Source of the DNA: a bacterium
GTDB lineage: Bacteria; UBA8248
Direction: 5' to 3'
Length of the DNA stretch: 64,000 bases
NCBI GenBank assembly: GCA_965200245.1
Contig: CBDATS010000004.1
Span: 1,184,001-1,248,000, forward strand
Shown: positions 42,987 to 64,000 of the stretch, piece by piece
Layout of the letters: each line of letters starts with the position of its first letter
Numbering within the stretch: position 1 is the first letter of the stretch
Program-made: the position numbers and the translations under genes
Notes under the pieces: model-generated
Database searches by the model: none
Told to the model about the DNA's origin: nothing
What the model saw: only the letters and a program-made list of their open reading frames with translations

Positions 42987-43517
42987 TCAACCTTTCAAAT
43001 GGCTGGCCACTTCCTCAACAAACTTGAGTGTCGTTTCTCTCATTTCATCGGGCTGCAAGTTGCTCACCGGATGAGGTAACTGCACATACGGGTGACCTTC
43101 CATTCCCTTTCCACGAAACTGAAAGTCAGCAGCGTTTTTGAACGCCTCGGTAATAATGGTCGTTGCCGGGATACCCCGTTTCTCAAATTCAACCGTGTCG
43201 TGCACACTGCACAACGTGCAGGAACCTCAGCCACCCAAGGCGGCTATCGCCAAATCAATCTCCTGGGCCATATCCTCGATCATTTCATCGGTGGCGGGTT
43301 TGGAATAATGCTCCTTCCGCCGCGAGATGACTCTGGCCACGTCGTATTGTTCACGCAGGGCATTTCCCAGAGTTTCCAAAATGATGTCCGCTTGCTCTTT
43401 CGTGTTGTCCAAGAGCCCTACTACTTTCCCTGAAAGGTCTTCGGGGCGTTGTGCAAGCTCGATTCGTGCAACCGACCCACCCGCTGTCGGATCGATGAAT
43501 CCCATTCCGTTCGCCAT
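42987..43517 (-). CDS. UGSC-type selenoprotein (TGA 43227-43229 read as Sec; GrdB/PrdB-like UxxC), 176 aa
   Basis: ORFs 43227-43529 and 42987-43214 are in the same frame: ...DLAIAALGG-TGA-GSCTLCSVHDTVEFEKRGIPA...; ATG 43517 follows GGAG. Confidence 0.9.
43197..43215 (-). promoter_or_regulatory. Putative SECIS hairpin of the UGSC gene
   Basis: GUUGUGCA-GUG-UGCACGAC; 8-bp stem starts 11 nt after UGA, with a G-initiated loop. Confidence 0.75.
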
Positions 43518-43717
43518 GGTTTTCTCCATTAGAATTATGTGAATTCAATCGCGTTCGCATCATATCCCGCAATTTAGTCCCTGTCTACGATATCAATGCC
43601 CCTTCAGCCATGGCTCGAAAACACGAATGAAGTTTTTCCCTCTTCTCAGTTTCGCCGAATTTTGACAAAATCAAGCCTACTTCACTCAACTCCTCCAATC
43701 TTTAAGGAGCAAAACAA

Positions 43718-45988
43718 ATGGCCGGTTACGATATCATCGGCAAGTCAAACGTCCGATATGATGCAATCCCGAAAGCGGATGGTTCCATGCCCTATGGAGA
43801 GGACACGATACCCGCAGGCGCCTTGCAATGTGGCGTATTGTTTACGCCCATCCCGGCAGGCCGCTTGAAAAAACTCGACACGTCGAAAGCCGAAAAAATC
43901 CCGGGTGTAGCCGCCATCTTGACCGCAAAGGATATTCCGGGGACTAACACGCGGTTCGGCTCGGGCACGCCGGGCCTCCCGCACCAGCCGGTATTGGTGG
44001 AAGACAAAATCGAATTTACGGGCGATGCCCTCGCAATCGTAGGCGCCGAAAACAGAGAAACGCTTGACGCTGCCATTGCGGCTATTGAGGTGGAAATCGA
44101 GGCGGAAGAAGGCGTGTGGACAACGCGTCACGATGAGTCGAGTGCCGAGAAGCGCCAGGCATGTGACTTCGAGGTCACCCGCGGTGACATCAATACCGCG
44201 TTCGATGAAGCCGACGTAGTAATTGAAAAAACATACACCACTCAGCTTGCCGAGCACGCTTTTCTGGAACCTGCTTCCGGTACTTCCTGGATGGAGGAAG
44301 ACGGCATCATCACCATCCGCGTCGGGACTCAACTCATCGAATACTATCGCGCCATAGCCGCTATTTTGGGAATCTCACAGAGCCGTGTTCGCCACCTCGG
44401 CACTTATGTTGGTGGCGGATTCGGTGCCAAGGGCATGCTGACCGTGGAACCCTACCTCGCATTGCTCACCTGGCATACGCAAAGGCCTGCCGTCATGGTG
44501 CTTGGTCGTGAGCACGGCATCAGAAACACTTCCAAAAAGCATCCCTTCTACATGAAGTACAAAACAGGAGCTACCAGGGACGGGAAACTCCTGGCCGTAC
44601 AAGCGGATATCGTGGGCGACGCAGGCGCTTATCCCTATAAATCCAATTTATTCCTCTTGGGTGCCATGTGCATCGCCGCCGGACCTTACGATGTCCCCAA
44701 CGTAACAATTCGAGCGCACGGCTATCTCACCAACAATCCCATCACCAACGCGATGCGCGGTGTTGGCTCGAACCAGGTCTGCTTTGCTTACGAAAACCAG
44801 ATGAACCTGGTGGCGGACACCATCGGTATTGACAAATACGAATTCAGACGGAGAAATTTCATCCAGAAAGGTCAGGAACTGCCTACAGGGCAGAAAATTC
44901 CCTACGAACCAAACCTGGAAGAATGCCTGGACAGCGCGCTAGAGGCCTTGGGTGCTCCGACAGAACCAGGTCCGGGAAAACGTATCGGACGTGCGGCGGC
45001 GGCGAACATCACCGGCTATGGAAGGCCACATGACGATGCGAATGCAGCGGTTCACCTTGAGCCTGACGGCAGCGCCGTGGTCCGCGTGAGCGCACCGGAC
45101 ATAGGCGCAGGTCAGGGGGCTACGCTTCAAAGCATCACGGCCGAAACCCTGGGGCTCAGGCTCGACCAGGTTTCCACCCGCTTATCCGATTCCGCCACGA
45201 CACCACTCTCGGGCATCACTGCGGGTTCCCGCCAAACGCTTATGGCAGGACACGCCGTTCGCCTTGCTGCAGATGAAGTACGAAAAGCCGTTACCAAAGG
45301 CGCCGCTTCATTGCTCGAGGCAGCGGAAGAGGATATTCGCGTCGGCGGTGGCGAGGCGTGGGTAGCCTCCGCTCCCGAGAGAAGGATTGGCATAGGTGCT
45401 GCAGCTGGAGAAGCCAAGAAAATGGGAGAATCGCTACACTGTACACACGGCTACAACATGCCGGGCCATCAGTATGAGAATCCAGAGCGATACATGAACG
45501 GCATGGGCGGATGGTCGGACTACACATTTGGTGTTCACGCGAGTGAAGTGGAAGTCGACATCGAAACCGGCGAAGTAAATCTATTGAAACACATAGCTTC
45601 GCATGATGTCGGGCGAGCGCTGAACCCTCAAAGCGTGGAGGGGCAATTCGAGGGCGGCGCAGTGATGGGGATTGGCTACGCACTCCACGAGGAAATTACG
45701 ATGGTGGAAGGCGATTGTCGCTCGCAAAGCTTTCATGAATATCTGATCCCTACCTCATCGGACATCGGCGAGGTCGAATCCGTCGTTCTCGAGTGCGGTG
45801 AGGGCGCGGGACCTTACGGTGCGCGCGGCGTCGGAGAACCGCCATGCAACAATGCGCCGGCCGCCGTCGCCCTCGCCATCAATGACGCAATAGGCACTGA
45901 AGTCTACGACCTGCCCATCACGCCCGAGCGCGTCTGCTGGGCGGTCATGAAGAAAAACGGCAAAAGCAACGGTCATCAGGAACCATAA
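43718..45988 (+). CDS. Xanthine dehydrogenase family molybdopterin-binding subunit
   Basis: EHAFLEP, VGGGFGAK, AMRGVG, DIGAGQG, AGSR, NP..VEGQFEGG, GARGVGEP. Confidence 0.93.
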   Translation: MAGYDIIGKSNVRYDAIPKADGSMPYGEDTIPAGALQCGVLFTPIPAGRLKKLDTSKAEKIPGVAAILTAKDIPGTNTRFGSGTPGLPHQPVLVEDKIEFTGDALAIVGAENRETLDAAIAAIEVEIEAEEGVWTTRHDESSAEKRQACDFEVTRGDINTAFDEADVVIEKTYTTQLAEHAFLEPASGTSWMEEDGIITIRVGTQLIEYYRAIAAILGISQSRVRHLGTYVGGGFGAKGMLTVEPYLALLTWHTQRPAVMVLGREHGIRNTSKKHPFYMKYKTGATRDGKLLAVQADIVGDAGAYPYKSNLFLLGAMCIAAGPYDVPNVTIRAHGYLTNNPITNAMRGVGSNQVCFAYENQMNLVADTIGIDKYEFRRRNFIQKGQELPTGQKIPYEPNLEECLDSALEALGAPTEPGPGKRIGRAAAANITGYGRPHDDANAAVHLEPDGSAVVRVSAPDIGAGQGATLQSITAETLGLRLDQVSTRLSDSATTPLSGITAGSRQTLMAGHAVRLAADEVRKAVTKGAASLLEAAEEDIRVGGGEAWVASAPERRIGIGAAAGEAKKMGESLHCTHGYNMPGHQYENPERYMNGMGGWSDYTFGVHASEVEVDIETGEVNLLKHIASHDVGRALNPQSVEGQFEGGAVMGIGYALHEEITMVEGDCRSQSFHEYLIPTSSDIGEVESVVLECGEGAGPYGARGVGEPPCNNAPAAVALAINDAIGTEVYDLPITPERVCWAVMKKNGKSNGHQEP

Positions 45989-45992
45989 ACAA

Positions 45993-46156: not shown

Positions 46157-47176
46157 CTACACACTGAATTTTTTGGTCACGGCCCGACATGCTACGGTGA
46201 TTCCATGCATGACCATGCTTGATGGCGATCCTTTGCTTCCCGCGACGATCAGGTGAAGATCTTCGGGATCCCCTACTGCAGGCACGAAGAAATCATCATC
46301 ATGTATATCCACGGGAAACGGCCAGCGATCCGCGCCTTTCTCGCCTCTCCAGATCCCGCCCCGCTTGATATCTCGGATAGTACGACCACCCATTTCCAGC
46401 AATTTTCGGTGTACATCGCTGCGGGCCAAGCCTGCACCGGCGCACAGATGCGCATGTTGCGCGCCCAGGACAACCGCCATGTCAGCTTGCCGATACATAT
46501 TGGGTCCGCCCAGAGCGGACATCATATCGGCAACCGTCGCAAGAAGTCGGTCGGGGGTCAGGCTCGCATCGTCCCATACCTGTACGGGGCCTTCGAGAGG
46601 AATCATGGTCACAACATTGTCGCTTTTGTGAAATCCCTTCGATTCTGCATACGACTCCCAGGGCGATTCCTCCTCGTACTCCATAATGCAAAAGGTGTTT
46701 CGCCAAGGACCCCCAAAACCGCCCAGACAGGTGACTCCGGGGATGCCTCCACCCACATTCATCATGACGAGCCTCACGGCGCGGCCGATGGTCAAGTTTG
46801 CGCGAAAACCAGGACCCATGCAGCCCACGCCGCCGTGCAAACCGATTTCCCTGGCGTAGGGACCATTCACCAACAGAAAAGGCGCACCCGCACTCGTCGT
46901 GGCCTGGATGAGATTTACGTTGAAACGCTCATCAAGAAGCGCCTCCAGACCCGCTATCAAGACCGGCATGTATTCAGGTTTACAACCAGCCATCACGGCA
47001 TGTGCCGCCACGCCCTGGATGCTGAGTTCCCCGCCCGCCGGAGCCACATGACCGAGCACTTCGCCAGGCTCCCTTGCCGTCCCAGAGAGCATCGATGCGA
47101 TCCTGCCTTCCGTCGGTGTCACGACAGGCAAGCCGTCTGACCATTCTTTTTCAAAGAAAAACTCGAACTCATCCAT
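46157..47176 (-). CDS. Uncharacterised 'DGLP' family protein, tandem paralogue 4
   Basis: WSDGLPVVTPT, HAVMAGCKPEY, QATT, VNGP, GCMGPGFRAN.TIGRA, ESPWE. Confidence 0.85.
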   Translation of the reverse strand: MDEFEFFFEKEWSDGLPVVTPTEGRIASMLSGTAREPGEVLGHVAPAGGELSIQGVAAHAVMAGCKPEYMPVLIAGLEALLDERFNVNLIQATTSAGAPFLLVNGPYAREIGLHGGVGCMGPGFRANLTIGRAVRLVMMNVGGGIPGVTCLGGFGGPWRNTFCIMEYEEESPWESYAESKGFHKSDNVVTMIPLEGPVQVWDDASLTPDRLLATVADMMSALGGPNMYRQADMAVVLGAQHAHLCAGAGLARSDVHRKLLEMGGRTIRDIKRGGIWRGEKGADRWPFPVDIHDDDFFVPAVGDPEDLHLIVAGSKGSPSSMVMHGITVACRAVTKKFSV

Positions 47177-47192
47177 CAATTTGGCGATTATC

Positions 47193-47516: not shown

Positions 47517-48533
47517 CTATGGTCGATAAGCAGCCGAAACCGCTTCGCTGCCATCCACCCAGCCAGGCATGACGGCCGTCACCGGTCCGGGCGTACCCCC
47601 TGCGACGATCAAAACCAGATCGTCTTCATTTTTGACCGCCGGGACCATGAATGAATCATCTTGCCGCCCCGCGTCAGGCGGCCATTTTGCTATCATTTCC
47701 TCACGCCAATAGCCCGATTTTTTCAGCTCCCCGAGAGGCTTGCACGCAAGCTCCATGATTTGGTGATGGACATCTTCCTTGCTCAAGCCCGCCGCCGCGC
47801 ACATGCGCGCATGATCCGGACCCAATGCGACGACAACCTGTGTTCTCAGCCAAATATTCAGCGACCCCAACGTGGATATCTTGTCCGCCAGCCCGACGAA
47901 AAATGATTCCGGCTCCCTGGAATAATCATCGATATACCCTTGAGGCGCTTCTGCCATCACGGCGGTCACAACATCATCATCTGGATGAAACCCTCTCGTA
48001 ACGGACAATGGCTCCCAGGGGTTTTCCGCTTCATTCTCGGCGACACAAAACGTATATCTGGCAGGTGAACCGAATGTGCTCATGGAGGCGGAAATCGGCA
48101 CACCGCCGCCGATGTTCATAAGAATGAGCCGGATGGCACGACCAATCGTCGCATTCGCCCGAAAACCCGGGCCAAAGCATCCCGTGCCGCCATGCAGGCC
48201 AATTTTTTTCGCGTACGGCCCATTCATGATCAGTAAAGGTGCCGCGCTGTGCATGGTGCCCTGCACACCGTTCAAATTGAGTTTCGGCTCAAGCAGCGTC
48301 TGGAGGCCGGCAATCACAACGGGCAAAAACGAAGGCTCGCACCCCGCCATGACGGCATGCGCGGCAATCGCTTGAACACTGGCCTCCCCCATGAGGGGTG
48401 GCACCAAGCCGATGACTTCCGAAGCCCCAGGTTTTGCGCACGAAAGCATGGCGGACATTCGTTCCTGGGTAGGAGGAACAATCGGCAGGCCATCCGACCA
48501 TTCTTTTTGAAAGAAAAACTCGAATTCATCCAT
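47517..48533 (-). CDS. Uncharacterised 'DGLP' family protein, tandem paralogue 3
   Basis: WSDGLPIVPPT, HAVMAGCEP, GVQGT, GCFGPGFRANATIGRA, ENPWE. Confidence 0.85.
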   Translation of the reverse strand: MDEFEFFFQKEWSDGLPIVPPTQERMSAMLSCAKPGASEVIGLVPPLMGEASVQAIAAHAVMAGCEPSFLPVVIAGLQTLLEPKLNLNGVQGTMHSAAPLLIMNGPYAKKIGLHGGTGCFGPGFRANATIGRAIRLILMNIGGGVPISASMSTFGSPARYTFCVAENEAENPWEPLSVTRGFHPDDDVVTAVMAEAPQGYIDDYSREPESFFVGLADKISTLGSLNIWLRTQVVVALGPDHARMCAAAGLSKEDVHHQIMELACKPLGELKKSGYWREEMIAKWPPDAGRQDDSFMVPAVKNEDDLVLIVAGGTPGPVTAVMPGWVDGSEAVSAAYRP

Positions 48534-48574
48534 CGAAACTTGGTTTCGCCTTGCCGGTCACGGCATATTCAGCG

Positions 48575-49603
48575 TCAAACTTCATAGACCCCATGTACGG
48601 CGCGGCTCCCGCCGCTCCACCCATGACAGACCGCACTGCCCGATCCCCACCCGCCTGCGACGATCAGGTGAAGGTCGCGGGAATCCTTGATGACGGGGAC
48701 GAAAAAATCCTCATCATCCGGATCTACGTGGATATACATATCCAGAGCACGCTCGCGTCGCCAGTTGCCGCCTTGTTTCAGATCCTTCACCTTATGGCCG
48801 GCCAATTCACACAGACGCCGATGCACGTCAGCGCGCGCCAGGCCACCCTCGGAACAAATCTTTGCATGCTGAGGATTCATGGCGACAACCATATCGGTTC
48901 TTGGCGCGTGCATGTTCCAGGAACCCAAACCCGTCATCGCATCGGCGATGCCGCGGAGCAGCCTCTCGGGCTCCTCGCTTACATCATCAAAGGTCAATCG
49001 CGGGCTTTCCACCATCGCCATGGTAATCACGTTCTCGTCCTTTCCATACCCTCTGGATTCAGCGAGCGTCTCCCACGGGTGAAATGGAAGGTTCTCCGTG
49101 ATGCAGGCCGTATAGCGCAGCGGCGTGGCGAAAATCGTCATGGAGGAAACACCCGGAATGCCCCCGCCCAGGTTCATCAAAATCAGGCGAATGGCGCGCC
49201 CTATGGAAGCGTTGGCCCTGAATCCGGGGCCAAAGCAACCGTTGCCCCCATGAATGCCGATTTCTTCGGAATAGGGCCCGTTCACGATCATGAGTGGCGC
49301 TACGCCGTGCATCGTGCCCTGCACGCCATTCATGTTGAATTCTTCACGGAGCATGAGGGAAGTGGCACCGAGAACAACCGGCAGATATTCGGGCTTGCAA
49401 CCCGCCATTACCGCATGAACCGCCACGCTGTGAACCGTGGCCTCACTCATGGCGGGGGGAACGTGGCCTATCAGTTCATCAGAATTTCTCTTTGTACCGG
49501 CAAGCATGCGCTCAATGCGCTCCCCGGTCGGAGTGACGACCGGAAGGCCGTCCGACCAGGGTTTTTCAAGAAAAAACTCGAATTCATCTTGAGGTTCGTT
49601 CAA
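48575..49603 (-). CDS. Uncharacterised 'DGLP' family protein, tandem paralogue 2
   Basis: WSDGLPVVTPT, HAVMAGCKPEY, GVQGT, GCFGPGFRANASIGRA, HPWE. Confidence 0.85.
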   Translation of the reverse strand: MNEPQDEFEFFLEKPWSDGLPVVTPTGERIERMLAGTKRNSDELIGHVPPAMSEATVHSVAVHAVMAGCKPEYLPVVLGATSLMLREEFNMNGVQGTMHGVAPLMIVNGPYSEEIGIHGGNGCFGPGFRANASIGRAIRLILMNLGGGIPGVSSMTIFATPLRYTACITENLPFHPWETLAESRGYGKDENVITMAMVESPRLTFDDVSEEPERLLRGIADAMTGLGSWNMHAPRTDMVVAMNPQHAKICSEGGLARADVHRRLCELAGHKVKDLKQGGNWRRERALDMYIHVDPDDEDFFVPVIKDSRDLHLIVAGGWGSGSAVCHGWSGGSRAVHGVYEV

Positions 49604-49634
49604 ATTTCCTTACCTCTTGAAGGTACGGATATCA

Positions 49635-50666
49635 TCAAGATTCGAATGCGCGCGATACGGAACGGCTGCTCCCGTTCCATCCGTGCATCACGGCCGTAAT
49701 CGGGCCTGGAACACCACCTGCCACGATCAAGATTAGTCTTTGGGCCTCTTTTATCGTCGGAACGAACACTTCGTCATCGTTCAAATCGACAGGAATCGGA
49801 AAACTCTTGACGCGATTTTCCCTGAAATGCCCTCCCGTTTTGAGTTCGCCCACCGTGCGGCCCGCAATTTCGCAAAGGCGTCCGTGGACATCCGCCCTTG
49901 AATACCCCCTCTTTGCGCAAATCGCGGCCTGTTGCGGGCTCATCGCCACCACCAGATCGGTATTGGCCCAACAGTTCCACGAACCCAGGTGCGACATGGT
50001 GTCCGCTATGGAAGGCAACATGCGCTCGGGGTCGTCGCTCACATCATCCCAGGACATGACGGGGCCCTCTACGTGCACGGCGGTTACTACATTCTCCCCG
50101 GCTTCGAAACCCTTCGACTGCGCAAGAGACTCCCAGGGACTCTCCTCCTCGTTCTCTGCGATGCAATACGTGAACCTGCCCGGCTGTGAGAACGTACTCA
50201 TCGAAGTGATGCCCGGTATTCCGCCGCCAATGTTGAGAAGCAAAAGCCTGATGGCCCGGCCGATTGTCGCGTTGGCGCGATTCCCGGGACCGAAACAGCC
50301 GAGTCCGCCGTGTAGCCCGACTTCCCTGGCATAAGGGCCGTTCACGATCAAGAGAGGGGCTGCGCATGAGAGAGTCGCCTGAACGCCACCCACGTTGAAT
50401 TTTTCTTCTAAAACAGCCTCCATCGCCGCGATGAGAACTGGCATATATTCCGGTTTGCATCCGGCCATGACGGCGTGAACGGCTATGGTCCGAACGTCCG
50501 CCTGCCCCAGAAGCGGGGGTATGTCACCGATGATTTCGTCCGGACCGCGGTTCGTCCCCGCTAACATGAGGCCCACACGCTCTTCGGTGGGGGGGATGAC
50601 CGGCAGACCATCCGACCAGGCCATTTCGAAGAAATATTCGAACTCATCCACAGGAGGGGTACTCAC
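49635..50666 (-). CDS. Uncharacterised 'DGLP' family protein, tandem paralogue 1
   Basis: WSDGLPVIPPT, HAVMAGCKPEY, GVQAT, GCFGPGNRANATIGRA, ESPWE; GTG 50666 follows GGAGG. Confidence 0.85.
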   Translation of the reverse strand: MSTPPVDEFEYFFEMAWSDGLPVIPPTEERVGLMLAGTNRGPDEIIGDIPPLLGQADVRTIAVHAVMAGCKPEYMPVLIAAMEAVLEEKFNVGGVQATLSCAAPLLIVNGPYAREVGLHGGLGCFGPGNRANATIGRAIRLLLLNIGGGIPGITSMSTFSQPGRFTYCIAENEEESPWESLAQSKGFEAGENVVTAVHVEGPVMSWDDVSDDPERMLPSIADTMSHLGSWNCWANTDLVVAMSPQQAAICAKRGYSRADVHGRLCEIAGRTVGELKTGGHFRENRVKSFPIPVDLNDDEVFVPTIKEAQRLILIVAGGVPGPITAVMHGWNGSSRSVSRAFES

Positions 50667-50821
50667 GAAAGCCTCCGAAACGAATTGTTGGAGCAAAGGA
50701 CACGTTTACCGCCAATCATGCGGAAAATATACACGGGCACTGGACAGATTGCGAGTCCATGTCGTTAGAATGCCACCGCGTCCCGATCCACGATCATCAC
50801 CTCACATACAGGAGCACCTTG

Positions 50822-51214
50822 ATGCCTATTTACAGAAATCTCGCCAGCCAGAACCAGGGGAAAGCGGCCGATTACGTCACCGCAGACGCCAGCTGGGTGG
50901 ACGGCGCACACTCCACCATCGGTTATTTCCGTATGGAGGCGCACGGCCATTCGAATCCGCACTACCACCACGACGAGCAGTTCCTCTATCTCCTGAAGGG
51001 CAGGCTGCGCATCGCCGCAAGGGGCGAGATATTCGAAGCCGAGCCAGGCGATCTGGTACAGTTCGCGCCCGGAGATGTGCACGAGATCATGGCGCAGGAA
51101 GAGCCCGTGGAGCTTTTGCTTGTACGGAGCCCGGCACGGCCCAGTCTCGAGGTGCTCGCGGTGACGCCCGAAGGCGAGGGCGCGAGGAGCGTCCTCCGAC
51201 CTGAATCAAATTAA
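50822..51214 (+). CDS. Cupin domain protein
   Basis: PHYHHDEQ.LYLLKG...PGD...PGDVHEI; ATG after AGGAG. Confidence 0.82.
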   Translation: MPIYRNLASQNQGKAADYVTADASWVDGAHSTIGYFRMEAHGHSNPHYHHDEQFLYLLKGRLRIAARGEIFEAEPGDLVQFAPGDVHEIMAQEEPVELLLVRSPARPSLEVLAVTPEGEGARSVLRPESN

Positions 51215-53977: not shown

Positions 53978-54139
53978 AGAGCAATCACCCGCAAGGGTGG
54001 ACTTTCGCCCCCATCCATCTCGATTCGCAAGGCTTTCGCAGGGACGGTTCTCGAACCGTCTCTGGATCAGAAAGCGCGTTCTGGCCATAGGAACAGCTCA
54101 CGACTTTCCCCCAAGGGAACCAGAAAATTTGCGAACAGC

Positions 54140-54304
54140 ACGAGCGTGGTCCTCTCCGTGGGCTTTGCCCTGTTCGCCGCCTCGGGCTACGAGGGGATCT
54201 GGATGCTCGGGCTGATGGTGACACTCATGATCAGTCTGGGGCTGCTCACCGACTTCTTTCTTCTGCCGACGCTGCTGATGCGTTTCGATCGGAGGAAACC
54301 ATGA
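54140..54304 (+). pseudogene. Remnant: last two TM helices of an MMPL/RND transporter
   Basis: TSVVLSVGFALFAASGYEGIWMLGLMVTLMISLGLLTDFFLLPTLL...*; no upstream body. Confidence 0.6.
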
Positions 54305-55743: not shown

Positions 55744-56820
55744 TCAGTCCTTAACGCGTGTCCCCGTGGAACCCTCGAACAGATGAACGTTTTCCATATC
55801 AAAGAACACCCGGAGATTCTCCCCCACCCGAGCGCGGAAATGACCTTCCTCCTTCACCGTGAGCACCTCTCCCCCGATATCGAGGGCGACGTAGGTATCC
55901 GAACCCAGCGGCTCGACGAGTTCCACCCGACCATCTGCGGAAACGAAGCGCGCCCCCTCTCCCTGAAACCCCAGGTGTTCGGGGCGGAAGCCGAGCGTGT
56001 AGACCTCTCCTTCCCGGCACGCCTCGGGAAGCGGGAAACGCACGACGCCCCCGCCGAGTTCGATATCTCCCTCCGAACGACGGGCACAGCCCTCGATGAA
56101 GTTCATCGCCGGGCTCCCCAGAAACCCCGCCACGAAACGGTTGAGCGGGCGATCGTAAAGCGCGGTGGGAGGTCCCGCCTGCAGTATCTTCCCCTCGTCC
56201 ATGACGACGATACGATCCCCCATCGTCATCGCCTCGGTCTGATCATGCGTGACGTAGATCGAGGTCGTGCCCAAGCGACGCTGGATCTTTCGGATCTCGG
56301 CACGGGCGATCACGCGCAACTTGGCGTCCAGGTTGCTGAGCGGCTCATCGAAGAGAAAGGCCACCGGGTCGCGTACGATGGCCCGGCAGACCGCCACCCG
56401 TTGGCGCTGGCCGCCCGAGAGCTGGCGCGGCTTGCGGGCGAGGAGGTCATCCAGCCCCATGAGAGCGGTGGCTTCCTTCACGCGGCGGTCAATCTCCCCC
56501 GGGGGAATCCGGCGCACGCGCAGACCGAAAGCCATGTTCTCGTATACCGTCATGTGGGGATAGAGGGCGTAGTTCTGAAACACCATGGCCATGTTGCGAT
56601 CCTTGGCCGGAATCTCGTTCACACGCTCACCCGACACGCGTATCTCGCCCCCCGTGGGAAACTCCAGGCCCGCCACCATCCGCAGCGTCGTCGTCTTCCC
56701 GCAGCCCGACGGTCCAACAAGGACGAGGAACTCTCCCTCTTCCACCTCGAGGTTGATTCCGTCCACGGCGCGCACGCTGCCGAAGTGTTTGCTCAGGTTC
56801 TCGAGACTCACGGTGCCCAA
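55744..56820 (-). CDS. CUT1 sugar-type ABC transporter ATPase (MalK/UgpC-like)
   Basis: GPSGCGKTT, VFQNYALYPHMTV, LSGGQRQR, DEPLSNLDAKLR, YVTHDQ.EA. Confidence 0.95.
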   Translation of the reverse strand: MGTVSLENLSKHFGSVRAVDGINLEVEEGEFLVLVGPSGCGKTTTLRMVAGLEFPTGGEIRVSGERVNEIPAKDRNMAMVFQNYALYPHMTVYENMAFGLRVRRIPPGEIDRRVKEATALMGLDDLLARKPRQLSGGQRQRVAVCRAIVRDPVAFLFDEPLSNLDAKLRVIARAEIRKIQRRLGTTSIYVTHDQTEAMTMGDRIVVMDEGKILQAGPPTALYDRPLNRFVAGFLGSPAMNFIEGCARRSEGDIELGGGVVRFPLPEACREGEVYTLGFRPEHLGFQGEGARFVSADGRVELVEPLGSDTYVALDIGGEVLTVKEEGHFRARVGENLRVFFDMENVHLFEGSTGTRVKD

Positions 56821-56831
56821 GCCGACTCCCC

Positions 56832-57680
56832 CTACTTCACCGCTCCGGCCGTGAGGGCGCGGACGAGATAACGCTGCATGAAAAAACCCACCAGCAGGGC
56901 GGGCAACATGATGAGCGTCGCAAGTGTGGACATATCCTGCCAGAAAACCTGCATCTCACCCATCGTCTCCGCCAACCGGACGGGGATGGTGCGCGCGTGC
57001 ACGTTCGTCAGCATGAACGCGAACATGAACTCGTTCCAGGCCAGAAGAAAAACGAAAATGGAAGTCGCCGCAATACCCGAGGACGCGAGGGGAAAGGTTA
57101 CCCGCGCCAGGGTGCGCAGCGCACCGCAGCCGTCCAGGGCGGCAGCTTCTTCAAGTTCTTTCGGAATGCCGTCGAAAAACGCCTTCATCAGCCATGTGCC
57201 AAAGGGGATGTTGAGGGCAGTGTAAATAAGGATCAGGATCAACCGCGTGTCGAGTATCTGGAGATAACGAAACAGCAGATAGAGTGGAACTACGGCCGTG
57301 ACGGGCGGTAGCAGACGCGTGGCCAGCATGAAAAACAGAAGATAATTCGACGCCCGGAAGCGATAGCGCGAAAACGCATAGGCTGCAAGGGAAGATACCA
57401 GCAGGGTGAGAAAGGTCGTCACCACCGCGATGAGGGTGCTGTTCCAGATGAAGCGCAAGGCCGACTCGTTTCCGAGCCCCAGGAACTTCTCATATGAGGA
57501 GAAATCAGGACTCACGAAAACCTTGGGCGGGATGCTGAAGATGGCGGTCTCATCCTTCAGCGAAGTGAGCATGATCCACACGATCGGAAACAGGCTGAAC
57601 GCGAGCAGCACCAACATTGCCCCTCGTGCAGCCGGGAAGGAGGGAATTCCGGGCCCGATCTGTTCTTCGCCCCGCGGCAT
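56832..57680 (-). CDS. CUT1 ABC transporter permease
   Basis: IPKELEEAAALDG EAA loop, LAWNEF. Confidence 0.93.
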   Translation of the reverse strand: MPRGEEQIGPGIPSFPAARGAMLVLLAFSLFPIVWIMLTSLKDETAIFSIPPKVFVSPDFSSYEKFLGLGNESALRFIWNSTLIAVVTTFLTLLVSSLAAYAFSRYRFRASNYLLFFMLATRLLPPVTAVVPLYLLFRYLQILDTRLILILIYTALNIPFGTWLMKAFFDGIPKELEEAAALDGCGALRTLARVTFPLASSGIAATSIFVFLLAWNEFMFAFMLTNVHARTIPVRLAETMGEMQVFWQDMSTLATLIMLPALLVGFFMQRYLVRALTAGAVK

Positions 57681-57683
57681 TGC

Positions 57684-58610
57684 CTAGCTATCCCTGTCCT
57701 GAATGAGCCGCAAGTAGGCGACCGCGATTCCCGCACCGAGCACGAGAAGGACAACCGAGGTGGCCGCCGCGTTGCCTACGTCGAAATAGCGAAAATACGT
57801 GCGCTGAACAAGCAGGCCGTAAGGCATGGTGGACGTGCCGGGGCCTCCTTCGGTGAGAATATAGGGAATATCAAACACCCGCAGCTTGAAAATGGTCTGA
57901 AACAGCAGCGCGACTACCAGCGGGGGAAGAATGAGCGGAAAGGTGATCCGCCGGAACACCTGCACGCGGTTCGCGCCGTCCACATGGGCGGCTTCGAACA
58001 CCTCGTTGGGCAGGGCGGTGATGCCCGCCAGGAGAATCATGGTGACGAAGGGCGTTGAACGCCATGCCTCGCAGATCACGATTGCCCAGAAGGCAGGGCC
58101 AGTCTCGGCGAGCCAGTTCACCTTGGCAATTCCCACGAGAGTGAGCAGGAGGTTCACGATGCCAATGTCGCGGTCCCACATGAGCCGCCAGCCGAGGCCG
58201 ACCGCAATGGGAGCGACCATATAGGGGGTCAAGAGAAAAGAGGTCACGAGTCGCCTGCCGCGTACCAGCCCGTAGAGCAGCAGTGCGCTCGCCACACCCA
58301 GTACAAACTCCAGGGCGATGGTGGCCACGGTGAAGCCCAGGCTGAAGCGGGTTACGGGCCAGAAATCGGGGTCGACCGTGAGCAAGCGAATGTAGTTTGC
58401 GAATCCGACGAAGCTGGAGAGATGAGGCGTGGTGAGCCGCCACTCCCACAGCGAGAGATAAATATTGTAGATTGAGGGATAGACCAGTATCCCACCAAGG
58501 ATGGCGAAGGCAGGCGCCATGAGCAGATAGGGCGCCATCGCCTGCTTTCGCGCGGGGGTAAACCACGACCGGCCCCCTCGCGCCGTTTTCTGGGCGGTTC
58601 CAGTACTCAC
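57684..58610 (-). CDS. CUT1 ABC transporter permease (start uncertain)
   Basis: FVGFANY, WRSTPF, EAAHVDGA, TEGGPG. Confidence 0.93.
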   Translation of the reverse strand: MSTGTAQKTARGGRSWFTPARKQAMAPYLLMAPAFAILGGILVYPSIYNIYLSLWEWRLTTPHLSSFVGFANYIRLLTVDPDFWPVTRFSLGFTVATIALEFVLGVASALLLYGLVRGRRLVTSFLLTPYMVAPIAVGLGWRLMWDRDIGIVNLLLTLVGIAKVNWLAETGPAFWAIVICEAWRSTPFVTMILLAGITALPNEVFEAAHVDGANRVQVFRRITFPLILPPLVVALLFQTIFKLRVFDIPYILTEGGPGTSTMPYGLLVQRTYFRYFDVGNAAATSVVLLVLGAGIAVAYLRLIQDRDS

Positions 58611-58668
58611 GACCCTCTCCGTTTTCTCGTTTGCGGCCGCGCCGCACGTATGACGAGCCCAATCCTCT

Positions 58669-58695
58669 CCCGGGAGGATGGATCGCCCTCCCGGG
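58669..58695 (-). promoter_or_regulatory. Intercistronic stem-loop after the solute-binding protein gene (possible mRNA stabiliser)
   Basis: 9-bp inverted repeat CCCGGGAGG...CCTCCCGGG without a U-tract. Confidence 0.45.
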
Positions 58696-58730
58696 GACTC
58701 GTCCATACGTCCAGGCAGTCGAGAGTGGCC

Positions 58731-60005
58731 TTACTTCAAGACCGCACTGATCTGCTTGCAAGCATCCTGCATGGCCTGCTTCGCGCTTTTCTTCTTCTGC
58801 AGGTAGTTGATGACTTCCTTCGAGGTGGCGTCACTGATTTCGGACGCGCGCGGATGCTGCGCCGCGCCGCTTCCCCGACTGATGGCGGTCAGCCACGCCT
58901 TCGCCACCGGAAACTTCTTCAGGTAGTCCGCGTTGTTGTAGACCGAACTGCGAACCGGGCCGTTCGCCCATTGCAGGGCGCCCCGAAGCTGGTTTTTCTT
59001 GTTAGAGAGCGCCATCATGAGCTCCCAAGCCGCCTTCTTGTTCTTGCTCTTCCTGTCCATGACGAGATGCCAGCCGCCGTTCAGGGTGGCGCCGGTATTC
59101 TTGCCATCCAGCGTCGGAACGAGGAACCAACCCAGCTTGTCAGCCGTCTTGGACTTCTTGGGGTTGGTCATCAGGCCCCAATAAGGGGAAAAATAGACCC
59201 CCATGGCCGCGCGGCCCTGCATCATGGCGTTTCGGTATTCGTCCCGGCCCCAGGCCAGCATGTCGGGCGGCGACCAGCCGCTGCGAAAAGGCTTGCCGAA
59301 GACTTCGAGCAACTTGATCGAATCGGCGCGGTCGAGCAAGCAGGTCTTGTTGTCGGCGGAGAGTACGCCGTGGCCCGAACTGTGGAGATAGCGCAGGAAG
59401 TCCTGTTCCACGTGGACGCCCGGTTTTCCGCGCTGAACGACGCCATAGACCTTGCCGGGCTGGTTCAGCTTCTCGGCCGCGGCGAGGAATTCGTCCCACG
59501 TCTTGGGAATCGAGACTTTGGCCGCCGCGAACAGGTCCTTGCGGTAATAGACGATTCCCGTTCCCGTCCGGTAAGGAATCCCGTAGGCGGGCCCACCGGG
59601 CTTTGGGAAGCGGGTAGTACCCGAGAGAGCGGGGATGAGATCTCCATAGTCGTAGTCTGCCGGCGCGCTCTTGATGTAGTTGTCCAAAGGCTCCAAAAAG
59701 CCGATCGTCTCGGGGTTGACCCATGCATCGACCCAAGACACAACGTCGAACTGTCCGCCTCCGGCAGCGAAGGAGAGTACTGCCTTGTCCTTGATCTTCC
59801 CGTAGGGGGTGGTCACCACGGTCACCTTGATGCCCTTTTCCTTATCAAGGTCGGCCACCACGCCCTTCGGCCCCCCAGCCGCCTTGAACAGGGTCGGGTG
59901 GATGAGGAGTGTGACCTTTTTGGCCGCCGCTGCAGGAAGTGCGAGCCCTGCCAACAGGGCGACCACGGCAATAAGGCAAATTAACCAGCGTCCGGAACGT
60001 TTCAT
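58731..60005 (-). CDS. CUT1 ABC transporter solute-binding protein
   Basis: Signal peptide, LEPLD, YGIP, YYRKDLF, PKTWDE, GGW. Confidence 0.92.
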   Translation of the reverse strand: MKRSGRWLICLIAVVALLAGLALPAAAAKKVTLLIHPTLFKAAGGPKGVVADLDKEKGIKVTVVTTPYGKIKDKAVLSFAAGGGQFDVVSWVDAWVNPETIGFLEPLDNYIKSAPADYDYGDLIPALSGTTRFPKPGGPAYGIPYRTGTGIVYYRKDLFAAAKVSIPKTWDEFLAAAEKLNQPGKVYGVVQRGKPGVHVEQDFLRYLHSSGHGVLSADNKTCLLDRADSIKLLEVFGKPFRSGWSPPDMLAWGRDEYRNAMMQGRAAMGVYFSPYWGLMTNPKKSKTADKLGWFLVPTLDGKNTGATLNGGWHLVMDRKSKNKKAAWELMMALSNKKNQLRGALQWANGPVRSSVYNNADYLKKFPVAKAWLTAISRGSGAAQHPRASEISDATSKEVINYLQKKKSAKQAMQDACKQISAVLK

Positions 60006-60064
60006 CGTTTCTCCTCCCTTTTCTGGGTGTTCGATCCAAGGCGATGCGAACTCCTAAAGAGCGG

Positions 60065-61450
60065 TCACAAAACCGCTCCATCCTGGCGAAGTTTTTCCCG
60101 CAGCGGTTCTACCGGCAGTTCGCGCGGAGTCATCCTGCGCTCCACGCACATGGACGCCGCCGTACCCGCTGCCTGTCCGATGGTCATGATGTGGGCCTGG
60201 TTGCGCACGGAACCGTTCGCGAAGCGGTCGCTCGATACGGGCCGGCCCGCCACGATGCAGTTCTCGATCTTCCGGGGGATCATGACACCATACGGAATGC
60301 CGTAGGACTCCCCGTCCCTGACGTGTTTGTGCTCAATCACACCGGAAGGCTGGTGTACGTCCAGACAGTAGGCCCCCTGACCGATATCGCGCGGTCCCTT
60401 GCGCGCCTCGACACAGTCTTCATCGGTAAGAGTTTCCTCCCCGATGATGCGGCGCGTCTCGCGCACTCCGATGGCCGAGGCCGAATCCACCACGTAGCAC
60501 TTCTCGAAGCCGGGAACGTATTTGCGGTAGAAATCGCGCACCTTAAATATCTGTTCGCGGCCCTCGATGGCGACCCGGTTCAGATCGTCGTTGTCGACGC
60601 CGCTGTAGCCCAGCATGCTCGTCGAGTTGATGGTGACCACTCCGGGAGTGGCGGTGATGGAAAACACCACGCGCTGGCGGTTCGGGTGAAACTCGCCTCG
60701 CGACTGGGCGAGCTTGACGGCCTCGTAATAGCCGGTAACGAGGGGGTAGTCCTTGTGGGTGCGGAGCCCTGCGGCGATTTCCTCACGGCTCTTGCCAATG
60801 TAGGGATCTTCGCCGAGCATGAAGTTGTAGGGGTTGGCCTTGACGTGCTGGAGGTGGCGATCCAGATCCACGTTTCCCATCCTGGAGAAGAGGCTGATGG
60901 ACATCATCTGGCCCTCTTCGTTCCCGAGATGGAAGGGCGCACCCGCCTGGGCGGCGATGTCTGCGTCGCCGCTCGCGTCGATAACGACGCGTGCGCGGAT
61001 TTCACTCTCCCCACTCTTGTTCACAATTCGAACTCCGGCCACCCGGTCACCGTCCATGACGGGACCGATGGTGTAGGTGTTCAGCACGAGCTCAACGCCC
61101 GCCTCCAGGCAGAGTTTCTGGTTCACGAGCTTGAGCACCTCGCCGTCCTGGGGCGTTACGGAGTAGGAGTTTCCGTAGGCGTTATGGAGATGGCCTTCGG
61201 GAAAAGCGCCGCCCAGCTTGATAAGTTCGTCCACGATTTCCTGGGGAATGCCGTCGCAGATCTGCTCTCCCTTCATGTTGTGGAAAGTAAGGAAGTTGCC
61301 GAGAAGGCCCGCCGTCGCGTTTCCTCCCAGGAAGGCGTAGCGATCCGTGAGGACGGTTCGCGCTCCACCCCGCGCCGCTGCGATTGCGGCGCACACCCCG
61401 GCCATACCAGCTCCGACTACGAGAACGTCAACGTTGCCTCTGTCTGCCAT
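60065..61450 (-). CDS. FAD-dependent oxidoreductase (FAD_oxidored type)
   Basis: DVLVVGAG.AG..AAIAAAR.G, IDASGDAD, GVRETRRI.G, IPY, AGR, GQAAG.AA. Confidence 0.9.
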   Translation of the reverse strand: MADRGNVDVLVVGAGMAGVCAAIAAARGGARTVLTDRYAFLGGNATAGLLGNFLTFHNMKGEQICDGIPQEIVDELIKLGGAFPEGHLHNAYGNSYSVTPQDGEVLKLVNQKLCLEAGVELVLNTYTIGPVMDGDRVAGVRIVNKSGESEIRARVVIDASGDADIAAQAGAPFHLGNEEGQMMSISLFSRMGNVDLDRHLQHVKANPYNFMLGEDPYIGKSREEIAAGLRTHKDYPLVTGYYEAVKLAQSRGEFHPNRQRVVFSITATPGVVTINSTSMLGYSGVDNDDLNRVAIEGREQIFKVRDFYRKYVPGFEKCYVVDSASAIGVRETRRIIGEETLTDEDCVEARKGPRDIGQGAYCLDVHQPSGVIEHKHVRDGESYGIPYGVMIPRKIENCIVAGRPVSSDRFANGSVRNQAHIMTIGQAAGTAASMCVERRMTPRELPVEPLREKLRQDGAVL

Positions 61451-61485
61451 TGGTTTCTCCTTTTTCCACCCGCCTGTATGCCCGC

Positions 61486-62520
61486 CTAATCCTGTACAGG
61501 CTTCGTGACCGCCCGCGTCTCACCGTAGGTAGGGAAAAAAAGCGTGTGGCTCCCCGGTCCACCCGCCACGGTGAGGAGAATGCTTTTTGGGCTATCCGCA
61601 ATCGGAACGGCCTCGGGCTCTGAATCGGTGAAGAGTCCCGGCCGCTTGCCCCGAACGCGCTCGGCTATCTCCGGAGAAAAGCTCGCGAGCGAAACCCGAG
61701 CAAGTTCAAAGAGCGCACACTGCACGTCCTTTCGGTCCATGCCGCCCGCTTCGAGGAGACTTTTATGCTGGGGGCTAAGGACGACCAGCACTTCGCCACC
61801 GCCTTGGGCGTTGTTCGAGCCGGGATAGGCCATTGAGCCTGCGATCATGTGCAGCACACTCTCCGCGCTCCCGCTCGCGTAATCGTTCACGTTCACAGGC
61901 GCGTCCGCACCCACCACCGTCACGGCATCTTGATCCGCGCGGAACCCCCGCGCCATATGGAGCGGCTCCCAGCCGCATTCCGCCTCGGCGAAACAGGCGG
62001 AGAACTTCCCTCCGTGGCCGAAAGTGGCCATATCTGTCTCACCGGGAGTCGCCTGCCCCAGCCGCACGGCGACCAGGCGGACGGCGCGCCCGATCGTAGC
62101 GTTCGCCCGAAAGCCCGGCCCAAGGCATCCGCTACCCGAATGTACGTCAAGCCGTTCGGCAAGAGGCCCGTGGACGACAACCAAGGGCGAGGCGAGTTCG
62201 GTGGTCGCCTGAATGGCCAGGAAATTGAATTCGGGCTCCATCACGGCTTCGAGCGCCGCCAGAACCACCGGGAAGTACACAGGTTTGCACCCTGCGGCCA
62301 CCGCGCAGACGGCGGCATCCCCCACAGTCAACTCTTGCATGCCGGGCGGCATGATTCCCAGAACGTGGCCGGGACCCTCCTGCACCGAGGCGAGCATGGC
62401 GTCGATCGCCCGGCGTGTAGGCGGGACGAGGGGGAGTCCGTCACCCGGTCCGTTCTCAAGTGCGGCTTCGAGCGCCGCCTCGGCGCTCGGCGAAATTTCA
62501 CTCAGAAGTGCCCCGGACAT
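61486..62520 (-). CDS. Uncharacterised 'DGLP' family protein
   Basis: GDGLPLVPPT, AVAAGCKP, IQATT, VHGP, GCLGPGFRANATIGRA, WEPLH..RGF. Confidence 0.85.
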   Translation of the reverse strand: MSGALLSEISPSAEAALEAALENGPGDGLPLVPPTRRAIDAMLASVQEGPGHVLGIMPPGMQELTVGDAAVCAVAAGCKPVYFPVVLAALEAVMEPEFNFLAIQATTELASPLVVVHGPLAERLDVHSGSGCLGPGFRANATIGRAVRLVAVRLGQATPGETDMATFGHGGKFSACFAEAECGWEPLHMARGFRADQDAVTVVGADAPVNVNDYASGSAESVLHMIAGSMAYPGSNNAQGGGEVLVVLSPQHKSLLEAGGMDRKDVQCALFELARVSLASFSPEIAERVRGKRPGLFTDSEPEAVPIADSPKSILLTVAGGPGSHTLFFPTYGETRAVTKPVQD

Positions 62521-62523
62521 AAC

Positions 62524-63999
62524 CTAGTCGATCTTCCGCGTCACAGAGCGGTGGTTCAGTGCGCCCGGCGCAAGGAGCGAGTTCGGTCCCGCGCCGCCAT
62601 GCACCACGATGGTGATGTCGCTTCGGTCCTCGACGATGGGAAGTGTCGCATTCTCCATCGTATTCACTCCGTAGAGCATCTGCTTCCAGTCGCTCCACCG
62701 TTCGCGCGATTCGGGGGGATAGGCGTGGACGGGAATACGGTAGACTTCACAGAGGAAATCGCGCACGAGCTTTTTGTCGAACCCCGCCTCTGCGACCTTG
62801 TTCGCGTGGGTGGGGCCGAATATAAGCATGATCTCGCAGCGGCCGAACTGCGGTCGAGTGCCGGAGCAAGCGGCCACCGTTCCGAAAGTCCCAAGGATGC
62901 CCTGCGCGGTGAGCGCGCTGTGATCATCTACCATGTGGAGGGGTTCTGCAGTGAACACCGTCACGACACTATCCGTTTCAGCGAAGCCCTTCTCCACATG
63001 GAGCGGCTCCCAGGGGCTCTGTTCGACGTTCTCGGTAATGGCGTCGAAATACTTGGCGAAATGGCCCTGGCAAGTAGCACCCCTGTTTTCGAGGTCGCCG
63101 ATGCAGTTGAACATGATGAACTTGACCGCGCGGCCGATGGAGGCGTTCACTCCCCATCTCTTCTCGCTCAGGTCGCGTCCGTCGCTCATCCCGATCTCTT
63201 GTGCGATGGGGCCGTTCACCACGACGATGGGGAACAGCGTGTGCGCCGTGGTGATGACATGGTTGACGTGATATTCCTCAGCCCCCATGGCTTGCACCGC
63301 TGTCACGAGGATAGGCATGACGCCCGGCTTGCATCCCGCCATGACGGCGTTGGCTGCGATTCGTTCGACAGTGATGTCCGCCATTCTAGGCATGAGGCGG
63401 GCGATGACTTCATCTCCCCTCCGGCCCGAGGCCGCCACAAACCGCTCCACCATCTCCACAGTGGGAGGTATGACGGGCAGCCCGTCGGTCACGCCTAGAT
63501 CGAAGAGCGCTCCGTTGGTGCCAATGGGGTCTGCCTCTATCGAAAGAACTCGCTCGATGGGGTCTTCCGCTGCTGCGGCTTCTCCCCCGTTCGCTGAGTT
63601 CATCCACTCGGAGGCCACAGAATCCACGCCGTTTCGCGCAATGTGCGTCAGAGCGTCGCCGCCTTGGTGGGCCACGGTGTCGTCCACCAGGAGAAGGCGC
63701 AGATTTGGGGATTTATAGGCACGGGCGAAGCTGCGCGCCGCCGTCTCGAAACCGTTTCCCACCACTACGACGGTGGGAACACCGCGTTTTTCGAGTTCCG
63801 CCGAGTCGTGGACACTCCACGACGTGCAACCCCCTCAGACTCCGAAGCCGGTTACCGCCACATCGCAGTTCGAGGCGATCTCGTCGAGCATCTCCTGCCC
63901 GGCACCCTGAGCGGCCCAGCCCTTCTTTCGCACGAAGAGTTCGGCGCCGTGCCGTTCCGCAAAGACCTCCCCGACATGGTTCAGGAATTCACCCGCGTG
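62524..63999 (-). CDS. Fusion of a UGSC-type Sec domain (U-G-G-C; TGA 63835-63837) and a divergent 'DGLP' domain; 5' end beyond window
   Basis: Continuous frame ...EMLDEIASNCDVAVTGFGV-TGA-GGCTSWSVHDSAELEKRGVPTVVVVGNGF...TDGLPVIPPT...NAVMAGCKP... Confidence 0.88.
63805..63823 (-). promoter_or_regulatory. Putative SECIS hairpin of the fusion gene
   Basis: GUCGUGGA-GUG-UCCACGAC; perfect 8-bp stem starts 11 nt after UGA. Confidence 0.78.
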
Positions 64000-64000
64000 G

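Follow-up and report, generated by a model that had tools for sequence, protein, structure and literature searches.

A selenoprotein of the UGSC family and the DGLP proteins encoded beside it in a sponge-associated bacterium

The locus and its selenocysteine codons

Toward one end of a 64,000-nucleotide stretch of DNA from a sponge-associated bacterium (contig CBDATS010000004.1, positions 1,184,001 to 1,248,000; this whole stretch is what we call the window) lie two genes of the UGSC family, selenoproteins with the motif U-G-S-C, in which U stands for selenocysteine (Sec), together with six copies of a domain of ~340 amino acids (aa) that we call DGLP after one of its motifs. One UGSC domain is fused in frame to a DGLP domain; the other UGSC gene, UGSC1, is free-standing and shares the window with four tandem DGLP genes (Table 1). 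The original prediction, a note made from the letters of this DNA, had described just this arrangement, and it is confirmed here: the TGA codons inside both UGSC reading frames encode selenocysteine, and the two UGSC genes and the six DGLP domains are what they were taken to be.

The UGSC family itself is an old acquaintance. The "UGSC-containing protein" has been listed as abundant since 2007-2008 (Zhang and Gladyshev, PMC1976440, PMC2398784), it ranks near the top of the prokaryotic selenoprotein families of natural waters in abundance, the GOS data containing 255 Sec forms (PMC2398784), and a 2026 review still classes it as uncharacterised (PMC13188914). That UGSC has no assigned function was part of the original prediction, and in the portions of PMC1976440, PMC2398784, PMC9312934, PMC5029168 and PMC13188914 covered here we likewise found neither a function nor a named partner family, barring one reported fusion to which we return. 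The genes described here share with that family the U-G-S-C motif, the in-frame TGA and a hairpin resembling a selenocysteine insertion sequence (SECIS); what sets them apart is that they are tied to a partner family, that the UGSC domain is modelled as a parallel alpha/beta fold, and that one genome holds seven copies, UGGC and UGSS variants among them.

UGSC1 scores 175.5 bits against the Pfam model PF24696 (cut-off 25) and 149.4 bits against NF041046 of NCBIfam (cut-off 125), and its true stop is the terminal TGA at 42987-42989. In the fusion gene, which encodes 535 aa, an N-terminal UGSC domain reads into DGLP with the Sec TGA as the sole internal stop; the gene starts 131 bases past the window end, preceded by a GGGGGAAGGAG ribosome-binding site, and reaches 96.3 bits with PF24696, above the cut-off, and 96 bits at full length with NF041046, under the cut-off of 125. 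The genome as a whole holds seven UGSC loci and 13 DGLP loci by tblastn, or 14 DGLP matches by profile search. All seven UGSC paralogues pass the Pfam model, and five pass the NCBIfam cut-off; their motifs are GGUGSC (UGSC1), GVUGGC (the fusion), GDUGSC (four) and GHUGSS (one), this last variant scoring 120.3 bits with NF041046 and passing Pfam.

How can one be confident that these TGA codons are read as Sec? The machinery is present, the codon is invariant in paralogues and relatives, and a hairpin beyond it is conserved with covariation. The genome carries selA (572.7 bits), selB (391.9 bits) and selD (338.6 bits; itself with one TGA) as well as a tRNA-Sec, as a selenium-dependent system presupposes. 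In all seven UGSC genes the TGA occupies the same motif position, and in 76 of 76 sequences (70 distinct segments from related loci and six own-genome loci) the codon at the Sec position is TGA, never TAA or TAG. Read as residues, the U position in the 70 related loci with UGSC is a stop in 65, Cys in three and Gly in one, the match falling short of the position in the remaining one. The hairpin lies 15-33 nucleotides (nt) past the UGA in each of the seven genes; across 77 sequences 87.7% of its cells are paired (15-55% with a slid partner column), its pair 21:27 switches between CG (40 of 77) and GC (35 of 77) and is unpaired in two, and none of 500 shuffles reached its covariation score. The reading frame is open and conserved on both sides of the TGA.

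One might still imagine that the TGA codons are real stops or errors and that UGSC and DGLP lie side by side by chance; gene callers, after all, end nearly all of the relatives at the TGA. We give this idea next to no credence. Against it stand the conserved frame past the TGA, the invariance of the codon, the compensatory change in the hairpin, the complete Sec machinery, the three loci with Cys at the U position and, as described below, the adjacency of the two genes in locus after locus.

Table 1. Positions of the genes and sequence elements in the window
Feature	Position	Strand	Remarks
UGSC1, free-standing UGSC-family selenoprotein gene	42987..43529	(-)	180 aa; motif GGUGSC; Pfam PF24696, NCBIfam NF041046
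Sec codon (TGA) of UGSC1	43227..43229	(-)	
SECIS-like hairpin of UGSC1	43197..43215	(-)	8-bp stem, 3-nt loop; 15-33 nt past the U of UGA
DGLP paralogue 1	46157..47179	(-)	tandem array
DGLP paralogue 2	47517..48533	(-)	tandem array
DGLP paralogue 3	48575..49603	(-)	tandem array; copy used for structure model
DGLP paralogue 4	49635..50696	(-)	tandem array
DGLP paralogue 5 (DGLP5)	61486..62520	(-)	directly downstream of fusion gene
UGSC-DGLP fusion gene	62524..64000	(-)	DGLP domain ~62524-63540, UGSC domain from ~63590
Sec codon (TGA) of fusion gene	63835..63837	(-)	motif GVUGGC
SECIS-like hairpin of fusion gene	63805..63823	(-)	
Two enoyl-CoA hydratases and acyl-CoA dehydrogenase	39740..42947	(-)	hydratases 42165-42947 and 41391-42092, dehydrogenase 39740-40942; downstream of UGSC1
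Molybdopterin-binding large subunit, xanthine-dehydrogenase family	43718..45988	(+)	between UGSC1 and DGLP array
FAD-dependent oxidoreductase (PF12831)	55744..61450	(-)	row shared with ABC importer; oxidoreductase gene itself 60065-61450; downstream of fusion and DGLP5
ABC importer	within 55744..61450	(-)	binding protein 58731-60005, permeases 56832-58706, ATPase 55744-56820

The linkage of UGSC and DGLP

That the two modules go together was the central claim of the original prediction, which drew it from a single fusion, and it has fared well. In the source genome every UGSC gene but one is either joined to a DGLP gene in a fusion or its immediate neighbour (six of seven); the exception, UGSC1, is separated by 2.6 kb from the four-gene tandem array. 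The two loci elsewhere with the closest relatives of UGSC1 (L029 and L032) encode DGLP proteins 65% and 61% identical to the third tandem copy, each with a UGSC gene of the GG*GSCT type directly after it, and because these relatives have an adjoining UGSC, it is most likely, as far as sequence can tell, that UGSC1 serves the tandem group. The further idea that one Sec subunit serves several DGLP proteins fits the window, with its one UGSC and four tandem DGLP genes, but elsewhere the pairs are as a rule one-to-one.

The stronger test comes from 80 loci, taken as one genome per species, from Betaproteobacteria, Dehalococcoidia, Methylomirabilota, Binatia, Acidobacteriota, Alphaproteobacteria, a haloarchaeon, a thaumarchaeon and others. 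In 68 of them a UGSC gene lies no more than 300 bp from a DGLP gene on the same strand, 34 in each gene order, and two more have one within 800 bp. We call this test stronger because the other comparison, among 51 genomes of the source phylum, represents few independent events; there, the 43 genomes that have UGSC are exactly those that have DGLP, and the remaining eight have neither. Since those eight all keep selA, which is found in 49 of the 51, DGLP tracks UGSC and not the mere capacity to make selenoproteins.

Natural fusions tell a similar story. Lengths above 400 aa are found in 76 of the 150 best DGLP cluster representatives, and 49 of these long proteins carry PF24696 at E<=1e-3 (46 above the cut-off), with UGSC mostly N-terminal; in four it is C-terminal and ends at the Sec position. 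Many of the long representatives start just past the Sec codon, that is, they are fusions cut at the TGA by gene callers. Other DGLP proteins are fused to AhpC-TSA/Redoxin domains (P0195, P0224), to FeThRed_B, the catalytic chain of ferredoxin-thioredoxin reductase (P0227), or to Pyr_redox_2, a pyridine-nucleotide-disulfide oxidoreductase (P0173), and since all of these are thiol-disulfide electron modules, they support a redox cycle that ends in a thioredoxin-type relay.

Had anyone seen such a thing before? A "UGSC/Unknown_1 fusion" was reported in 2008 from a few aquatic organisms, as UGSC joined to a conserved domain of unknown function with a conserved Cys (PMC2398784). The fusions described here resemble it in joining UGSC to a Cys-bearing unknown domain, and Unknown_1 (supplementary Figure S1A of that paper) may be the same as DGLP; they differ in that DGLP spans 6,723 clusters and many phyla, and in that split, adjacent pairs are the rule, which the parts of PMC2398784 covered here do not report. 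In calling the system undescribed, then, the original prediction was right about DGLP, which matches no Pfam or NCBIfam family, and overlooked a fusion already in print.

What is DGLP? The six domains in the window are 31-57% identical to the third copy and share 40 invariant columns, among them D-G-L-P, P-T, A-G-C, N..I-G-R-A, E and W-E. Across the family a nearly invariant Cys sits in A-V-M-A-G-C, with the further motifs D-G-L-P..P-T, N..I-G-R-A, E and P-W. By profile the family comprises the 6,723 clusters just mentioned (50% identity) at E<=1e-3, and 1,984 at E<=1e-30, and such of its matches as bear a name are all annotated "hypothetical protein." For the five free-standing DGLP genes of the window no Pfam or NCBIfam family was found, no Pfam match recurred among 71 members scanned at E<=5, and a profile search against PDB sequences found nothing (best E 0.53). 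Among the 30 ESM Atlas clusters nearest to the homologue P0016 none has a common Pfam family, and one is auto-named "thiol-disulfide oxidoreductase family protein."

DGLP genes also multiply within genomes: the genus of the source bacterium has 13-16 diverged paralogues per genome. About seven of those 76 long proteins consist of DGLP twice over, and in several of them A-G-C is retained by the first half alone, a hint of catalytic and non-catalytic pairs; such pairing may be why DGLP genes outnumber UGSC genes by roughly 2:1 in the genus.

A candidate two-part reductase

What might two such proteins do together? We lean, with moderate confidence, toward the view that UGSC and DGLP are two parts, sometimes fused, of one cytoplasmic selenoenzyme, a selenol- or thiol-dependent reductase. 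DGLP, at ~340 aa, would be the large substrate-binding and catalytic body, and UGSC a small alpha/beta module with Sec at a helix start and, usually, a Cys three residues on. The selenolate would attack either a substrate bound in DGLP or the DGLP Cys itself when oxidised or carrying an adduct, the A-G-C Cys being the single near-universal DGLP residue able to join a redox cycle; Sec would end as a selenenyl-sulfide, to be re-reduced by a thioredoxin-type system, and the net reaction would be a two-electron reduction. Paralogues of DGLP as numerous as the 13-14 of this genome could be versions for different small substrates, set in variable neighbourhoods that often hold genes for CoA-transferase III, acyl-CoA dehydrogenase, enoyl-CoA hydratase and importers.

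Methionine sulfoxide reductases, ArsC and PAPS reductase offer familiar points of comparison, as thioredoxin-dependent enzymes in which a nucleophilic Cys or Sec works with a resolving thiol. The likeness would lie in the proposed nucleophile, the resolving Cys and the thioredoxin-type relay, DGLP being fused to thioredoxin-fold and thioredoxin-reductase-like modules. The difference is that nucleophile and substrate pocket appear to reside on two proteins, and no relation of sequence or fold was found, no search aimed at these enzymes having been made.

A second comparison, made already in the original prediction, is with the Sec subunits GrdB and PrdB, and this resemblance gains some support. 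A profile of 12 UGSC sequences aligned by hhalign with the four GrdB/PrdB-like proteins of the same genome at 81% probability (E 1.2e-5), Sec on Sec, over 68 columns, a short segment matched with a small profile. Weak matches to TIGR01917, TIGR04483 or TIGR01918 fall in the same segment in four of the seven UGSC paralogues, the faint GrdB match of UGSC1 being to model positions 330-414 of TIGR01917 (E 0.0025). In both groups Sec follows a beta-strand at a helix start and is followed in turn by E-(K/R)-x-G-(I/V)-P-T. All the scores lie well under the family cut-offs (15.6-20 versus 602 bits for TIGR01917, 15.3 versus 65 for TIGR01918, 15.8 versus 300 for TIGR04483), and a whole-genome search with PF07355 returned four loci, the GrdB and PrdB-like genes, and no UGSC gene. 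A remote relationship of the Sec-bearing segment to GrdB/PrdB is thus likely at the sequence level; UGSC would work in the manner of the Sec segment of selenoprotein B and probably derives, distantly, from it, and UGSC falls outside that family.

The layout, too, is reminiscent, a Sec subunit and a larger subunit, as in GrdB with GrdE or PrdB with PrdA. Here the parallel ends. The DGLP profile aligns with the genome's own GrdE at 0.3% probability and with its GrdB/PrdB-like proteins at 0.5% (hhalign), PF09338, the GrdE/PrdA type, has no match among DGLP proteins, and on the two hhalign values we ruled out DGLP as a relative of GrdE/PrdA or of GrdB. No GrdA, GrdC or GrdD lies near the UGSC/DGLP pairs. 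The hosts of the pair include aerobes and archaea, unlike the Stickland fermenters.

Might the pair nonetheless be a true analogue of the "protein B" of glycine, betaine or D-proline reductase, with DGLP binding an amine or sulfonium and Sec attacking the alpha-carbon in a reductive C-N or C-S cleavage? This would be a sharper version of the explanation we prefer. It draws on the Sec-on-Sec alignment, on a UxxC spacing like that of the genome's own PrdB-like PVUPLC and PAUGLC, and on the importer, CoA-transferase III, acyl-CoA dehydrogenase and crotonase genes nearby, a set that resembles carnitine and betaine pathways. We think it unlikely. DGLP is not related to the pyruvoyl proprotein GrdE, no GrdA-like carrier stands beside the pairs, although the genome has a separate and complete GrdA-GrdE-GrdB cluster, and the neighbour families are generic to organic-acid catabolism and vary by lineage. 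The original prediction had suggested the cleavage of C-S or C-N bonds; nothing in our results shows either.

The genome's own Grd genes deserve a description of their own. GrdA (with Sec, 192 bits), GrdE (350 bits) and GrdB (398 bits, Sec in PATUGTGT) lie at G000:C5:575430-578652 (L109, L028, L024) in a complete-looking cluster apart from all UGSC/DGLP loci. Elsewhere are three short PrdB-like selenoproteins of 266-306 aa, with PVUPLC or PAUGLC and a partial PF07355 match (L025-L027; G000:C8:244819-245790, C4:784596-785609 and C4:1532007-1532963), another orphan Sec family of this genome.

Predicted structures add a little to the picture. The AlphaFold2 model of DGLP paralogue 3 has a predicted local distance difference test score (pLDDT) of 95.5 and a predicted TM-score (pTM) of 0.93, and on this model DGLP is a fold without a solved relative: Foldseek gave no match to solved structures at E<=1e-3, and exhaustive structure alignment (VIA, 48,161 chains) gave a best Z of 5.4 and none of 8 or more, which is under background (typical best Z 7-8). 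The model of the fusion protein (pLDDT 85.2, pTM 0.87 over both domains) suggests, by its pTM, a defined packing of the two domains. In it UGSC folds as a beta-alpha repeat around a parallel sheet, and Sec stands at a helix start. The literature takes UGSC to be a redox protein that acts alone, "likely with a Trx-like fold" (PMC2398784); the chains that Foldseek listed for the UGSC part in the whole-fusion search were AzoR (TMt 0.43-0.44), a TIR domain (0.51-0.52) and a B12-binding protein (E 8e-4), with no thioredoxin among them, and UGSC1 found nothing below E 0.39 among PDB sequences. Tentatively, then, the nearest solved folds of the modelled UGSC domain are flavodoxin-like and not thioredoxin.

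The top Foldseek rows for both models were class I fumarate hydratases, at E ~1e-3, TM 0.27-0.29 and a root-mean-square deviation (rmsd) of 16 A; VIA gave Z 3.6 for the same enzyme, with 182-186 residues aligned at an rmsd of 5.5-5.7 A, again under background. These Fe-S enzymes are weak structural neighbours of DGLP, and they need three Cys where DGLP conserves one. An Fe-S cluster in DGLP, which the fumarate hydratase rows had brought to mind, was ruled out: only the A-G-C Cys is conserved family-wide, and the two further Cys that the tandem paralogues possess do not occur in the window fusion or in several of 21 aligned fusions.

A good deal weighs against the two-part reductase, and it is best set out in one place. 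No substrate, activity or structure is on record for either family, and DGLP shows the want of kinship with GrdE and with GrdB/PrdB-like proteins given above. No UGSC gene was found near DGLP in 10 of the 80 loci, at least two of which are contigs of ~3 kb, and several DGLP genes of the source genome, the four tandem ones included, have no adjoining UGSC. The shared presence and absence within the phylum reflects few independent gains or losses. No constant third gene or dedicated electron donor stands beside the pair across 88 locus sets. The GHUGSS subtype (G000:C4:1134017, L017:8723-9301, and likewise L050 and L069) is without the Cys three residues past Sec, and in P0250 an Ala replaces the DGLP Cys. 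Finally, there is alignment A3, of 20 full-length non-Sec fusions and the genome's own Sec-bearing fusion: both UGSC redox residues are lost in seven of the 20 (AEIGGS, GWSGVY, ADIGAA, GNSGAP, AEGGNP, CDSG-V and CDQG-V), and the DGLP Cys is invariant in all 21 rows, even where UGSC is redox-dead. Because those seven have lost both residues, the chemistry of DGLP does not always depend on the Sec or Cys of its fused UGSC.

This last result invites a quite different arrangement, in which DGLP would be a non-redox enzyme (an isomerase, lyase or hydrolase) with a catalytic Cys, and UGSC a private, thioredoxin-like guardian that keeps the Cys reduced or returns it to that state. An invariant DGLP Cys beside a disabled UGSC is what one would expect of it; the fusions to thioredoxin-fold, FeThRed_B and thioredoxin-reductase-like modules fit a repair or activation relay equally well; and there is the weak fold likeness to class I fumarate hydratase and PrpD-type hydro-lyases (TM 0.27-0.29, Z 3.6-3.9). 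That likeness, however, is under the tool's background, a near-universal and costly Sec with a dedicated partner in 68 of 80 loci would be unusual for a mere guardian, and a module that is stably fused in either order looks like a stoichiometric component of the active site. We regard the guardian as decidedly unlikely. We stay with the two-part reductase, and rate the system as an undescribed catalytic family served by a Sec module like that of selenoprotein B.

Neighbouring genes, expression and significance

In the window the FAD-dependent oxidoreductase and the ABC importer follow the fusion and DGLP5 closely on the same strand. Of the neighbours named in the original prediction, the importer, the crotonases (two enoyl-CoA hydratases) and the acyl-CoA dehydrogenase are all present; in place of its thiol dioxygenase there is no more than a Cupin_2 protein of the generic sort, and the two cupins (50759-51214 and 53198-53977) match generic cupin models and none specific to thiol dioxygenases. 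The N-terminal half of the bicupin at 53198-53977 has, among many generic cupin matches, a weak one to the dimethylsulfoniopropionate-lyase cupin PF16867 (32.2 bits, cut-off 27). Elsewhere in the genome UGSC/DGLP pairs adjoin CoA-transferase III with a hydratase, two acyl-CoA dehydrogenases, luciferase-like monooxygenases or a flavin monooxygenase, and another adjoins CoA-transferase III with hydrolases and an aminotransferase.

Over the 88 locus sets the recurrent neighbours are CoA-transferase III (12 sets), TctC receptors (11), luciferase-like monooxygenases (10), acyl-CoA dehydrogenases (9), SDR (8), enoyl-CoA hydratases (6) and PrpD (5). The picture these sequences draw is of UGSC-DGLP as a self-contained two-gene module that would sit within varied routes for small organic acids. 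TauD looked for a while like a universal third partner, with an apparent presence in 42 locus sets, and was rejected: only seven of the 53 members of its cluster, in six loci, are real TauD, and the remainder, antisense shadows of DGLP and UGSC genes, had been linked to the cluster by a single chimeric frame. Long antisense open frames of this kind are a feature of DGLP and UGSC genes in GC-rich DNA (window 48551-49699 (+), L020:8088-8627 (-) and many related loci); they are homologous to one another and can create false "families" when neighbours are clustered.

In three of the 80 loci, all alphaproteobacterial (L084, L085 and L099), selA and selB stand directly beside DGLP-UGSC, as if the Sec machinery were kept there mainly for UGSC. 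Might the pair, then, handle selenium or sulfur itself, as a carrier, a persulfide or selenide relay or a means of detoxification, or sense redox state, and have no part in carbon catabolism? Its conserved residues are indeed one Cys and one Sec. The 13-16 diverged DGLP paralogues per genome, set among different catabolic genes, argue instead for many substrates, and no regulator domain is fused to them; we hold the selenium- or sulfur-handling role to be highly improbable.

Two other observations concern the surroundings. A lone molybdopterin-binding large subunit of the xanthine-dehydrogenase family recurs beside tandem DGLP arrays without an adjacent UGSC (the window, L030, L078 and L080), and no small or medium subunit genes lie beside the one in the window, at 43718-45988. 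Just past the window end, directly upstream of the fusion gene and on the opposite strand, an N6/N4 DNA methylase seems to be split into two consecutive frames of 324 and 176 aa (L019:4599-6046).

Are these genes expressed? The window stretch turns up in sponge-metagenome runs and in two metatranscriptome libraries of one study. Contigs from the RNA libraries span the whole of UGSC1 across its TGA, with 0-1 differences, and continue into the first hydratase gene; another, of 4,642 nt, covers 58592-62899 and beyond, that is, the binding protein, the FAD enzyme, DGLP5 and part of the fusion. Such contigs are no proof of transcription, strand or level, DNA contamination being possible, and we take those over UGSC1 and the fusion operon as a weak hint of expression. 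Cover is low or nil over parts of the tandem DGLP array, which is not evidence of silence. Over the LolA-like gene at 54139-55124 the RNA-library contigs show many base differences, a 6-base deletion and loose ends, which points to the presence of a related strain, or of a paralogue, in those samples.

What does all this mean for UGSC and its hosts? A defined partner family turns an open question about UGSC into an experiment. DGLP is a very large, unnamed and structurally unplaced family, with thousands of clusters that lack a Pfam model, and gene callers systematically truncate its fusions at the Sec codon. The source genome is an extreme case, with seven Sec-UGSC genes and 13-14 DGLP genes, and its possession of a classical GrdA-GrdE-GrdB makes the two systems comparable in one organism.

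One may be bolder and ask whether the pair represents a new class of selenium-dependent reductase, one with no pyruvoyl group and an unplaced fold, in which a GrdB/PrdB-like selenolate enters the pocket of a second, catalytic protein, there to reduce a carbon-heteroatom bond or cleave it reductively, the whole deployed in dozens of substrate-specific paralogues. This we put forward as a possibility, and a doubtful one. If it were true, the paralogues would let sponge symbionts, Dehalococcoidia, Methylomirabilota, Betaproteobacteria and some archaea use small organic compounds, and the radiation into so many paralogues would explain why UGSC is so abundant in natural waters.

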